64,000 bases of DNA from an uncultured Lachnospiraceae bacterium (GTDB taxonomy: Bacteria > Bacillota > Clostridia > Christensenellales > UBA1242), in NCBI GenBank assembly GCA_964383665.1, contig CAYLHO010000001.1, forward strand, positions 166,921-230,920, written 5' to 3'. Below are positions 59,508 through 62,032 of the stretch, in pieces (position 1 is the first letter of the stretch; the number at the start of each line of letters is the position of its first letter). A program made the translations under genes and the position numbers. The notes beneath the pieces were generated by a model that had not been told where the DNA came from, did no database searches, and saw only the letters and a list, made by a program, of their open reading frames with translations.

Positions 59508-60299
59508 TTATATATTTCCGCCATAAAAATCAAACGACTTCATAATTTCTTCCAAATCCTCTTTTGGATTGATTGCTTCGTTAAGGTCGAAAGCGCCTTG
59601 CGTTTTCGAGTAGTCTGGAACGCTTAAAATTTTTGCAAAAGTGTCTGGAACTTTTTCGTCACTGTCTAAAAATTTATCAACAAGATTTTCATAACTGTCG
59701 CCTTGTTCAAGGGTTAAATTTGAAATTGGTTTAATTTTTGTTTTCTCTTCAAGTTTCTCAAGGTCGGTTTTTTGAGAACATGTTGGCGCTTTTCTTTGTA
59801 TTGTTTTAACTGCTGGTTTTTTTGTTGAAACTTCAACTTTTGTTCCCATAAGTTTGTTAAGAAGATGCCTAATTGGGTCGGTTGTTGGAGTTTTAGTTAT
59901 AAGTTCAATGTTAAAATCGTCCTTAAGAGCACTTTTAATTGATGTTTTTAAATTTTCCATATCTTCTTTTACGTTTGAAACTTCAACAACATCTGGGGTT
60001 TTCTTAAGCATTTCATTAAGCATAATTTCCCATTTTGCATATAACATGCTAAGTTGTTCAAGTTTAAGCTTATAGATTTCTTGAGAACTTTCTTCAATTT
60101 CTTTTGCTTTGTCGATTGCAGCAGTTAACGCAAGAGCAACCGAACTTTCTTTTGCACGAGCGTCCTCAACCTCTTTTTTAAGCAAAGAAATTTCCGTGTT
60201 TTTTGCGTCAATTTCCTTCTCAAATTTCAAAGTTGTTGCCGAAATATATTCGTCAACCTCACTTTCACAATAGCCGTTTTTTTGTTTGCTAAAATTCAT
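59508..60299 (-). CDS. DivIVA-domain coiled-coil protein
   Basis: The N-terminal FSKQKNGYCESEVDEYI matches the DivIVA F-x(3-5)-GY-x(2)-EVD motif. A coiled coil follows. It has a 4-nt overlap with the upstream gene. Confidence 0.65.
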   Translation of the reverse strand: MNFSKQKNGYCESEVDEYISATTLKFEKEIDAKNTEISLLKKEVEDARAKESSVALALTAAIDKAKEIEESSQEIYKLKLEQLSMLYAKWEIMLNEMLKKTPDVVEVSNVKEDMENLKTSIKSALKDDFNIELITKTPTTDPIRHLLNKLMGTKVEVSTKKPAVKTIQRKAPTCSQKTDLEKLEEKTKIKPISNLTLEQGDSYENLVDKFLDSDEKVPDTFAKILSVPDYSKTQGAFDLNEAINPKEDLEEIMKSFDFYGGNI

Positions 60300-60835
60300 A
60301 CTTTCCTCGTGTTCGCTTTAATTGATAATATAACAAAAATCAAGATTACAGTTCCGGTTATTGAAAGAAGAACAATAAAAGGAACAAGCGGGAGAAAGTT
60401 TTCTCCAAACGCTATAAGTAATATAACACATAAAAACGCAAAAACAAAAACTTTAAAGTGAAAAATTTGACGAAATTTGATGAAAATTGAAAGAGATGAA
60501 AAGGCAAAAGAAGCAACATAAAGCCCGATAACAACAAAAAGATTGAAGACAAAAAAGTTGTTTAAAATTCCAACTGCTCCCGATGTTGAAAGCCAAATTC
60601 CAAGGAACATGCTTGAATCGATGTTATAGCAAAGAAAGCGAACAAAAAAGATTGTTCCAATTAAAACAAGGAAGCCGGAAAACCAAAATTGATTGAATTT
60701 TATAACATTGAAACTGCTTAAAGCAATAAGAACAAAGTATGCTAAAAAAGCAATTGAGGAATAAACTCTAAAAAAAATAGTTCTTTTCACAAGAACTATT
60801 ATTTCCTTATTTATTTGGTTCAATAACTTTTGCAA
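60296..60835 (-). CDS. polytopic membrane protein, unknown function
   Basis: About 5 TM helices. The track start (TTG 60835) overlaps the upstream gene by 29 nt. GTG 60790 is an alternative start. Confidence 0.5.
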   Translation of the reverse strand: MQKLLNQINKEIIVLVKRTIFFRVYSSIAFLAYFVLIALSSFNVIKFNQFWFSGFLVLIGTIFFVRFLCYNIDSSMFLGIWLSTSGAVGILNNFFVFNLFVVIGLYVASFAFSSLSIFIKFRQIFHFKVFVFAFLCVILLIAFGENFLPLVPFIVLLSITGTVILIFVILSIKANTRKV

Positions 60836-61994
60836 TTTTCATAAGTTCGTTTTGAACAAATTCATTTTCCTTTTGGCTTGTTAAAGCAATTGAATGGGAA
60901 GTTATTGTGATTTCATTTGAAATTGCTTTTCCAATTCCAACAAGTCGTTTAACAAGTTGAACACTTGAAATTTTGTGCCCCATATACTCCCCTTCTTCGC
61001 TTGCAAAGAATTGATCTAATCGAGTTAAAATTCCAATAACGTCGAAAATGAAAAGTCTAACGCTTTTGCCGTCTTTCAAAAGGGTTGTGCAATGATTAAT
61101 TGCGTTAACAACTGCGTAGTAACTTTCATCAAGAGAATTGTAATAGGTTGTTGCAAACATTTCAAGGTTGTCGTTTTGTTTTCCATAATAAATTACTTCT
61201 GGGGAAAGTTCAAGCCCAAGGAAAATAAGTTTTTCGTTTGAAGAAGGGTTTTGATTAATATCCTCAATTTCCTTAACAATTTCCAAAATTGCTGTTTCTT
61301 CATCGTTAAAGAAGGAAATTGTTCGCTCCCCTCTTTTAATTATTCGCCCGAAAATGTCGGTTAATTTGCTTGGGATTTCAAAATTTGAAATGTCAATGTT
61401 GTTCCTTGTTCCAAAATAGAAAGAAGCCTCTTTTCCGTTGATTTCAACAATGTCGTTCAAAATTCCGCAATAATAGGCGTCGGCAAGTTTTCCTGTTCCA
61501 AGAAGTTTGTCGCCTTCGCGAAGATTGAATTTTTCAATTGTTTCCTTTGGAACATAGAAAAGCATGTTCTTGAAGTTGCCTTGAGTGTTAAGATTGTTGA
61601 GATAGAAATTTCCATTAACAGAATTAAGGAAACCAAAAACCTTTGAAGCATCATCTCCTGAAATTTGGTTGAAAAGTGTTGTGTTTTGAGCAAGACGTAA
61701 TATGTTTGAATAGTTTTCTTGTTCAATTGGTTTTCGAAGCGCTAAAACATCTTGAGGGATTGATTCTTTAACAATGTTTGAAATTTTGGTTATTGTTTTA
61801 GGAGGACGCCCTTTGTTTGTTTGTCGAGCCTCAACTTTACGTTTCCCAGAAGAGATTTCCAAAATTTCGTTGCAAAGTTGAGCGCGTTTTTTTGTTGTTG
61901 GCGAAATAACGCCAAGAGTTCTTGCAAGTTCTCTAAGCTCATAAACACCCAGTTCATTAAGCATTTCTTTTGAAATTGTTTTTTTGTTTTCCAT
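60807..61994 (-). CDS. Rho-like protein: Rho_N and Rho RNA-binding (CSD-like) domains plus a degenerate, C-terminally shortened ATPase-like domain
   Basis: LNELGVYELRELARTLGV (Rho_N-like). FGFLNS, LFYVPKETIEKFNLREGDKLLG compares with Rho GFGFLR, IYVSPSQIRRFNLRTGD. The Walker A position reads IIKRGERTISFFNDEETA, so there is no GKT. The Walker B position reads LIFLGLELSPEV. Confidence 0.62.
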   Translation of the reverse strand: MENKKTISKEMLNELGVYELRELARTLGVISPTTKKRAQLCNEILEISSGKRKVEARQTNKGRPPKTITKISNIVKESIPQDVLALRKPIEQENYSNILRLAQNTTLFNQISGDDASKVFGFLNSVNGNFYLNNLNTQGNFKNMLFYVPKETIEKFNLREGDKLLGTGKLADAYYCGILNDIVEINGKEASFYFGTRNNIDISNFEIPSKLTDIFGRIIKRGERTISFFNDEETAILEIVKEIEDINQNPSSNEKLIFLGLELSPEVIYYGKQNDNLEMFATTYYNSLDESYYAVVNAINHCTTLLKDGKSVRLFIFDVIGILTRLDQFFASEEGEYMGHKISSVQLVKRLVGIGKAISNEITITSHSIALTSQKENEFVQNELMKIAKVIEPNK

Positions 61995-62003
61995 AATGCT
62001 TTT

Positions 62004-62032
62004 ATTATAAAGTATTTTTTTACAAAATACAA
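62004..62032 (-). promoter_or_regulatory. sigma-A promoter ending 9 nt before the Rho-like ATG (possible leaderless mRNA)
   Basis: The minus strand reads TTGTAT (62032-62027), 17 nt, TATAAT (62009-62004). The ATG is at 61994 and has no SD. Confidence 0.5.

Follow-up and report, generated by a model that had tools for sequence, protein, structure and literature searches.

Rho is regarded as an RNA translocase that obligately runs on ATP, and bacteria are described as having it or having lost it. What, then, is a gene whose product resembles Rho in its RNA-binding half and shows none of the ATPase motifs? This question is raised by a protein of 395 amino acids (aa), here called RhoL, that is encoded in a stretch of 64,000 nucleotides (nt) from an uncultured Lachnospiraceae bacterium (GTDB lineage Bacteria; Bacillota; Clostridia; Christensenellales; UBA1242; assembly GCA_964383665.1, contig CAYLHO010000001.1, positions 166,921 to 230,920 of the forward strand). 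We refer to this whole stretch as the window and use its own numbering for positions. An initial annotation, made from the sequence without database searches, had taken the protein for either a decaying Rho or a repurposed RNA-binding pseudo-ATPase linked to division or sporulation. The answer suggested by our analysis is a third state beside the presence and the loss of Rho, namely a motor-less orthologue, apparently under purifying selection, that fills a whole family of bacteria.

RhoL is a homologue of Rho

A sequence search of the Protein Data Bank (PDB) with RhoL returned only a spurious match to a YrbI phosphatase, so that profiles and structure were needed to establish its homology. 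Hidden Markov models from the libraries gave weak but specific matches: NCBIfam PRK09376 (NF006886) aligned to residues 10–370 with E 5.3e-7 (28.8 bits vs. a cut-off of 315), TIGR00767 scored 24.3 bits against a cut-off of 509 and hence below the equivalog score, and the Pfam domains Rho_RNA_bind (E 1.4e-3) and Rho_N (E 0.011) both stayed under the gathering score. The match from profile to profile was strong, with a probability of 100% and E 1.3e-39 over 392 columns when an alignment of 32 RhoL family members (A1, the source of all residue counts out of 32 given below) was compared with canonical Rho using hhalign. The AlphaFold2 (AF2) model of RhoL has a predicted local distance difference test score (pLDDT) of 81 and a predicted template modelling score (pTM) of 0.71, with residues 210–390 mostly above 90 (about 90–96), and the top 50 PDB matches of this model in Foldseek are all Rho (best E 6.9e-17; 13%–18% identity; alignments to Rho chains of about 300–410 columns). 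Its RecA-like part finds structural counterparts in the C-terminal domain of Rho. Judged by profile and predicted fold, RhoL is a true homologue of Rho that has kept the Rho fold, as the initial annotation had proposed. Its domains run from a helix-extended-helix (HeH) bundle over a basic disordered linker and an OB domain to a RecA-like domain without a nucleotide site, and the C-terminal subdomain of Rho is missing (see Table 1 for all coordinates).

The motor of Rho has been lost

Motor residues were mapped by hhalign and MAFFT and are given in E. coli Rho numbering. At the former P-loop, PIGRGQRGLIVAPPKAGKT of RhoL aligns to IIKRGERTISFFNDEET of Rho with K184 and T185 deleted, and a Walker A motif (GxxxxGK[ST]) was found at this site in 0 of 258 RhoL homologues. 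G171 and R173 of Rho are kept as G222 and R224 (the equivalent of R224 in 23/32 members). D210-E211-R212 correspond to E262-L263-S264, so that the catalytic Glu and the Arg valve are lost, and the family has L, I, or V and S, A, or T at these positions. R269 of Rho has become I322, and the Q-loop and R-loop that make up the secondary RNA site are unalignable or deleted and have no counterpart in RhoL. The chain ends around E. coli residue 345–356 and thereby lacks the R366 Arg finger as well as the C-terminal subdomain. Because the nucleotide site, the catalytic residues, the RNA-translocation loops, the Arg finger, and the C-terminal subdomain are all gone, RhoL is predicted to be incapable of working as an ATP-driven translocase.

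The lack of ATPase motifs that had been read from the sequence at first therefore stands up to formal alignment, which brought to light neither a functional GxxxxGK[ST] nor a catalytic Glu, and the same is true for a C-terminus truncated by about 70 residues (65–75 in our alignments). The motif pair on which part of that reading was based, VLLIDERPEEV of Rho and IFLGLELSPEV of RhoL, was right in substance and off by one residue in its register around LEL, since LIDERPEEV aligns to GLELSPEV.

RhoL is the rho orthologue of its lineage and fills a family

The genome that contains the window (G000; 834 kb, 97.6% complete, 36% G+C) encodes no canonical Rho: a six-frame scan with TIGR00767 found only RhoL and SpoIIIAA (C1:138605; L002 1057–1998), and the latter assignment rules out C1:138605 as a second canonical rho. 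The survey of this motor-less architecture across relatives extended the finding to the whole GTDB family of the window genome (61 genomes of 58 genera, 0.7–1.6 Mb). Canonical Rho is found in none of the 61 (best score 197 bits vs. the cut-off of 509), and RhoL is present in 56 of them, including 52 of the 55 high-quality genomes, with one gene each. In 14 further family sequences that we inspected, the Walker A Lys was missing without exception. The least degenerate form of the family, in G170, has LIEERPEEV and still contains the C-terminal subdomain.

In a sample of 121 genomes from the order, Rho scored above the cut-off in 89. In the order genomes that we inspected visually, matches of the A1 profile and of TIGR00767 fell on the same locus, and no second Rho-like locus was seen in the relatives checked, which rules out RhoL as a co-resident paralogue of canonical Rho. 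Families f21 and f24 have the block sipL(SPOCS)-spoIIR-sleB-ypeB upstream of their canonical rho, and it likewise lies upstream of RhoL in the window genome's own family f1 (G124, G066, G163). Since the locus is the same, the upstream block is shared, and a second Rho-like gene is lacking, RhoL is by position and content the orthologue of rho and not a paralogue.

RhoL is maintained by selection

The ratio of nonsynonymous to synonymous substitution rates (dN/dS) was calculated between the window gene and its nearest orthologues (L003 and L004; dS about 0.78). It amounts to 0.14 for the whole gene, 0.10 for the N-terminus, 0.11–0.14 for the OB domain, and 0.15–0.16 for the dead ATPase half; among the neighbours, fba has 0.12, the DivIVA-like gene 0.17, and the membrane gene 0.24. 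A collection clustered at 90% contains 123 RhoL homologues, and a further search gave 549 representatives at E ≤ 1e-3; nearly all are 350–400 aa long. Intact frames of about 365–396 aa are seen in more than 240 distinct homologues, and the gene is retained in family genomes as small as 0.8 Mb. By these measures, RhoL is under purifying selection. The idea of a repurposed pseudo-ATPase is thus supported as far as sequence goes, in that selection acts on a motor-less protein.

The N-terminal module is the most conserved part of RhoL

Invariant positions cluster in residues 16–66 and in the OB domain, and the C-terminal half contributes only G222 and D318 as (nearly) invariant residues. The HeH bundle is the best-conserved part of the RhoL family, with its motif present in 233 of 243 full-length homologues and residues L20, R21, A24, R25, T33, K35, L40, and I44 invariant in A1. 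Besides the Rho_N match given above, it is recognized by the Pfam profile Fan1_SAP (E 0.006). In the linker behind it (pLDDT <50 at residues 56–76), the motif KGRPPK has G62, R63, and K66 invariant and P64 and P65 conserved to at least 90%, while GRP is found in 236 of 243 homologues; we view its likeness to an AT-hook as a lead. The canonical Rho of sister families also has an ELRxxAR..SPT..KK signature together with RGRPPK. The N-terminal parts of RhoL have basic isoelectric points (pI) of 9.3–9.7 and the RecA-like part an acidic one of 4.9.

In the OB domain, hhalign aligns YVPKETIEKFNLREGD of RhoL to YVSPSQIRRFNLRTGD of Rho, the signature FNLREGD corresponds to FNLRTGD, and G121, G161, D162, and N186 show no variation. 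The base-reading residues in Rho's primary binding site (PBS) for RNA are replaced, with N (18/32) for R66, L or V for D78, and Y, E, or D for E108, and Y110 has become C, Y, or F; the window protein itself has N, L, Y, and C at these positions. Aromatic residues of the PBS are kept as F130 (F62 of Rho), Y147 (Y80; Y in 17/32), and a near-invariant Y131. Of the intact and good RNA-binding half that had been claimed for RhoL, the OB fold is confirmed, but the PBS is not. FGFLNS, singled out as a match to an RNA-binding motif, aligns with E. coli DGVLEI in strand 1, and it is GNFYLNN that corresponds to GFGFLR instead.

Motor loss appears to have occurred repeatedly in the order

Damaged or missing P-loops were also detected elsewhere in the order, namely in G108 (f16; PPKTDPT, E211Q), G020 (GRT, E211K) and G056 (f21), G105 and G047 (f9), and G040 (f40). 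In the gene tree, the forms from f8, f9, f16, and f21 share one clade with canonical Rho (support 95/87) apart from f1, and these 4 families contain canonical Rho as well. Because of this clade and the family labels within it, the motor appears to have been lost at least 4 times; long branches make it unsure where f40 belongs and whether f1 is monophyletic, and finer statements would be unsafe. In the class sample, canonical Rho was found in 126 of 150 genomes and the other 24 gave nothing at E ≤ 1e-25, so that at the thresholds used the either-or of Rho presence or loss is the picture across these 150 genomes, and Rho intermediates are, at that threshold, peculiar to this order.

Three Rho proteins of f8 (G007, G077, and G104; L037–L039) keep GKT and have A or Q in place of E211. 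They may be a natural ATP-binding, non-hydrolysing Rho and a possible intermediate. No Rho-like gene was detected in G015 and G052 (f16) or in G044 and G102 (f4), which suggests recent complete losses because other f16 genomes and the same f4 genus (g6) carry canonical Rho.

Neighbourhood and promoter of the window copy

On the minus strand, the gene order is fba, hpf, RhoL, an open reading frame (ORF) for a membrane protein, a DivIVA-like ORF, and then galU (Table 1); a domain scan of the window ORFs confirmed fba and hpf upstream of the RhoL gene. This is not the Rho-syntenic position that had been assumed. Across the order, rho and dead rho follow sipL-spoIIR-sleB-ypeB, but in G000 the spoIIR-sleB-ypeB block lies at C2:968–3687 and RhoL in the middle of C1, another contig. 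Because the ancestral block lies on C2, RhoL has been relocated in this genome, and the order's rho position also rules out a Bacillus-like fba...rho synteny.

Table 1. Features of the RhoL locus and of the RhoL protein, in window positions.
Feature	Position	Strand	Residues	Evidence or remark
Terminator-like palindrome	59484..59504			Just past the DivIVA-like gene; consensus scan
DivIVA-like protein, 263 aa	59508..60299	-		Start overlaps membrane gene stop (ATGA); Shine-Dalgarno (SD) sequence GAGGAAA
Polytopic membrane protein, 179-aa ORF	60296..60835	-		About 5 transmembrane (TM) segments; ORF, hydropathy count
RhoL (Rho-derived protein, 395 aa)	60807..61994	-		ORF, hhalign, AF2/Foldseek, dN/dS
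RecA-like domain	60810..61382	-	205-395	All motor motifs gone except Walker B Asp
D318 (Walker B D265)	61041..61043	-	318	Sole motor residue kept; D in 29/32 members
Former P-loop, FFNDEET	61293..61313	-	228-234	APPKAGKT (A178-T185) in Rho; 3 residues shorter, acidic
OB (cold-shock-like) domain	61425..61649	-	116-190	Primary RNA site partly degenerate
KGRPPK, AT-hook-like basic motif	61797..61814	-	61-66	In disordered linker
Rho_N/SAP-type HeH bundle	61851..61970	-	9-48	GVYELRELAR..GV.SPTTKKR
RhoL promoter	-35 TTGTAT 62032-62027; -10 TATAAT 62009-62004	-		17-nt spacer; sequence
hpf intrinsic terminator	62044..62072	-		GGGAAATTT-loop-AAATTTCC, then T8; read off the sequence, absent from the consensus scan list
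hpf	62090-62614	-		Between fba and the RhoL gene
fba	62668-63597	-		Upstream of hpf

An overlapping three-gene unit had been proposed. The overlap of the membrane and DivIVA-like genes is real; that of RhoL and the membrane gene (29 nt) exists only if the latter starts at TTG 60835, and a start at GTG 60790 leaves a gap of 17 nt after the RhoL stop. We consider this GTG, which stands behind AAGGAA, the more likely start because homologues of the membrane protein align only from residue 11–16 onward. The membrane protein has no match in Pfam or NCBIfam, and the DivIVA-like protein matches Pfam DivIVA (PF05103; residues 2–78 on profile positions 10–89) with E 0.003 and 18 bits against a cut-off of 28 and TIGR03544 with E 0.014. 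The hpf terminator sits between hpf and the RhoL promoter, and the downstream palindrome likely marks the end of the unit.

The unit is kept in L003–L012 and L017, down to 31% identity. A DivIVA-like gene stands beside RhoL in only 2 of the 61 family genomes, both of the window's genus. In 6 of 8 other family loci (among L076–L083, from G159, G132, G146, G165, G066, G160, G172, and G173, with lgt identified by sequence only), the DivIVA-like gene comes after lgt and a gene of about 160 aa with 5 TM segments; lgt and the TM gene are apparently fused in some family genomes into an ORF of 316–396 aa. The set of lgt, TM gene, and DivIVA-like gene looks like a conserved module. The three-gene unit of the window was rejected as a conserved functional module since it is only subclade-wide, and by this distribution the association of RhoL with the DivIVA-like gene is a derived, local one. 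The case for a connection with division or sporulation is correspondingly weak, with the adjacency confined to the subclade and the pair elsewhere following lgt. The hint at sporulation that spore genes beside rho might give also dissolves, since it was beside these genes that rho stood ancestrally. Rho has been linked to sporulation in B. subtilis as well, but those links concern active Rho (PMC11599450).

Two further observations concern these surroundings. Dead rho is accompanied in several loci (L068 5031–11210, L070 60–6179, L071 7875–13904, and L074 54–6320, also in L016 and L021) by a giant ORF of about 2,000 aa that is convergent or adjacent; the copy in L071, the only one scanned, has no Pfam domain, and that in L074 (G159) falls outside the cluster of the other 3. 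The 834-kb G000 also has a sporulation set of spo0A, sipL-like SPOCS, spoIIR, sleB, ypeB, and spoIIIAA (C2:968–3687; C3:30960–31769; C3:41887–43386; C1:138605; window 52193–52949).

The promoter is present as first described, with 9 nt between the -10 element and the ATG (61994) and no SD sequence, and it is conserved in orthologous loci (L003–L010 and L017, with 6–9 nt between -10 element and ATG). The RhoL mRNA is predicted to be leaderless or nearly so. Within the promoter spacer (62010–62026), TTTTGTAAAAAA is conserved in all orthologous loci (L003–L012 and L017), even at 31%–38% identity, and may be an operator. A crude survey found the same geometry, no SD sequence and a TATAAT-like hexamer (often TGATATAAT) 5–11 nt before the start, at 84 of 645 G000 ORFs, for example at window 57508–57545, C1:209830–212595, and C1:243583–244620. 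This rules out the leaderless promoter as a speciality of RhoL. An SD-like motif precedes only about 54% of G000 ORFs, and leaderless starts look like a trait of this genome.

Explanation and alternatives

On balance, we think it probable that RhoL is the lineage's own rho turned into a pseudo-ATPase which binds single-stranded nucleic acid through its N-terminal module independently of ATP. The selected function would reside in this module of basic HeH bundle, KGRPPK linker, and OB domain, and the ligand bound without ATP would most likely be nascent or untranslated RNA. The acidic RecA-like domain would provide a scaffold, probably for oligomerization, and RhoL would be a passive RNA-binding factor, possibly associated with RNA polymerase (RNAP), instead of a terminator motor. 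In the subclade of the window, the gene has moved behind fba-hpf, where it would be co-transcribed with the membrane and DivIVA-like genes from the leaderless-type promoter.

Several observations weigh against this explanation. Because other residues stand in place of the base-reading R66, D78, and E108, RhoL cannot be assumed to bind RNA as Rho does, and its specificity may differ. Rho subunits meet in part through the C-terminal subdomain, whose absence makes a RhoL hexamer uncertain. Branches of RhoL are 3–10 times as long as those of canonical Rho, indicating much relaxed constraint, and 5 of the 61 family genomes lack the gene. Two in-frame TAA codons interrupt the RhoL match in G134:C4:41290–42375 and one interrupts that in G120:C7:29166–30293; these copies may have been pseudogenized in single genomes. 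The purine bias of genes, lost in rho-less Bacilli (PMC13323073), shows no relaxation here, which would lend the explanation weak support. On the coding strands of G000 and of 20-kb samples (L084–L123), gene purine content is 54.6% in G000 and 55.4 ± 1.1% in family samples, and relatives whose Rho is canonical have 53.5 ± 2.1%; genomes with dead Rho stay at 54%–56%. However, the comparison is confounded by G+C content, which is strongly different between the groups, and third-position purine is equal between the dead-Rho and canonical-Rho groups. Across the sample, purine content tracks G+C content (about 0.49–0.50 at 60%–63% G+C and about 0.55–0.58 at 40%).

Tentatively, this explanation could be extended to the order as a whole, a large radiation of uncultured, Christensenellales-like Clostridia from the gut. 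It is conceivable, though we would not presume it, that Rho was made ATP-independent at least 4 times (in f1 and in lineages of f9, f16, and f21, with the Glu-less form of f8 as an intermediate) and that a motor-independent function of its HeH-GRPPK-OB crown outlived Rho-dependent termination. Such a function could be that of a ring which binds RNA passively in the manner of Hfq, or of a surveillance factor bound to RNAP and still selecting for purine-rich mRNAs. The graded intermediates would in any case constitute a natural separation-of-function series for the roles of Rho besides translocation, with a bearing on the debated translocation-independent (“stand-by”) models.

These models also inspire an alternative that we regard as unlikely while taking it seriously, in which dead Rho docks on RNAP like open-ring stand-by Rho and acts as an ATP-independent factor that pauses, inactivates, or protects the polymerase allosterically. 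In cryo-electron microscopy structures of stand-by complexes (PMC12360218), Rho touches RNAP with the face formed by its N-terminal domain, the most conserved one in RhoL, and the Foldseek matches include PDB entries 6XAS and 6XAV from such complexes. The purine bias of genes persists, and G077, G104, and G007 keep GKT without the catalytic Glu, as expected if binding matters and not hydrolysis. The KOW domain of NusG binds the C-terminal domain of Rho, and the absence of the C-terminal subdomain from RhoL speaks against such a factor. So does the possibility that the stand-by complexes are off-pathway (PMC12360218).

It seems improbable to us that RhoL is instead a nucleoid or chromosome-anchoring protein whose HeH bundle and KGRPPK motif bind AT-rich double-stranded DNA together with the membrane protein and the DivIVA-like protein, in the manner of RacA-DivIVA. 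The SAP-type match, the invariant GRP in a disordered basic linker, the genome's G+C content of 36%, and the tight three-gene unit kept at low identity would agree with such a role. However, the DivIVA-like gene is a neighbour of RhoL in 2 family genomes only and elsewhere follows lgt and the TM gene, and HeH bundle and RGRPPK are already present in the motor-competent Rho of sister families, presumably for RNA binding.

That RhoL is a functionless relic, a decaying Rho on its way to loss, is very hard to reconcile with our results. The very long branches, the scores far under family cut-offs, and the genomes without the gene (5 in the family as well as G015, G052, G044, and G102 outside it) could be read in this way. 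Yet its dN/dS of 0.14, with 0.15–0.16 even in the dead half, is on par with housekeeping neighbours such as fba, more than 240 homologues have intact frames of constant length, the promoter is conserved, the AF2 fold is confident, and the gene is kept in 56 of 61 family genomes, including some shrunk to 0.8 Mb. A cryptic NTPase with a non-canonical nucleotide site around D318 is barely credible: a Walker B Asp in 29/32 and R224 (R173 of Rho) in 23/32 members stand against a P-loop that is acidic and three residues shorter, with no Lys/Thr, catalytic Glu, or Arg finger.

Comparison with known systems

What is new here is Rho without its motor as an apparently selected orthologue, from which we infer the mechanism outlined above. 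We found no published description of such motor-dead Rho proteins beyond one survey that lists “Rho-like” sequences in passing (PMC11347177), and a 2025 review of Rho makes no mention of natural motor-dead orthologues (PMC12360218). For annotators and comparative studies, our results are a caution that “Rho present” as judged by domain matches does not equal Rho-dependent termination.

With Rho itself (TIGR00767/NF006886; PDB 1PV4, 3ICE, 6XAS, and 7OQH), RhoL shares the fold, the domain order of HeH, OB, and RecA-like parts, and positional orthology in relatives. It differs by the lack of Walker A, catalytic Glu, Arg valve, R269, Q- and R-loops, Arg finger, and the last 65–75 residues, by the replaced base-reading residues of the PBS, by its 24–29 bits against cut-offs of 315–509, and by a leaderless-type promoter that leaves no leader for autoregulation. 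The survey mentioned above, from 2024, defines “Rho-like” proteins as those with only an N-terminal and an RNA-binding domain and mentions 2 members of the Actinomycetota (Baekduia soli as well as Conexibacter woesei), which its main text does not analyse (PMC11347177). As listed there, their proteins resemble RhoL in matching Rho_N and/or Rho_RNA_bind but no Rho ATPase model, in genomes without functional Rho. By the same listing, to which the comparison is confined, RhoL differs in keeping a dead ATPase fold and in the orthology, selection, and family-wide spread documented here.

An HeH bundle of the Rho_N type outside a motor context is also found in RHON1 of Arabidopsis plastids, a Rho_N-only protein for which a role in terminating plastid transcripts is reported, and in cyanobacterial DUF4912 proteins; these are unlike RhoL in having no OB or RecA-like domain and in not being Rho orthologues (PMC13613805). 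The short-form Rho paralogue NF041509 is likewise reduced in length, but it has lost the N-terminal domain and kept the ATPase. RhoL is the opposite case and scores 13.7 bits with this model against a cut-off of 628, which places it outside that family. Finally, the alpha subunit of F1-ATPase and the B subunit of V-ATPase are non-catalytic RecA-type subunits that still bind nucleotide and stand beside catalytic partners. Like them, RhoL has kept a RecA-type fold, probably as a scaffold, after catalysis was lost; unlike them, it is without a P-loop, and its genome encodes no catalytic partner.

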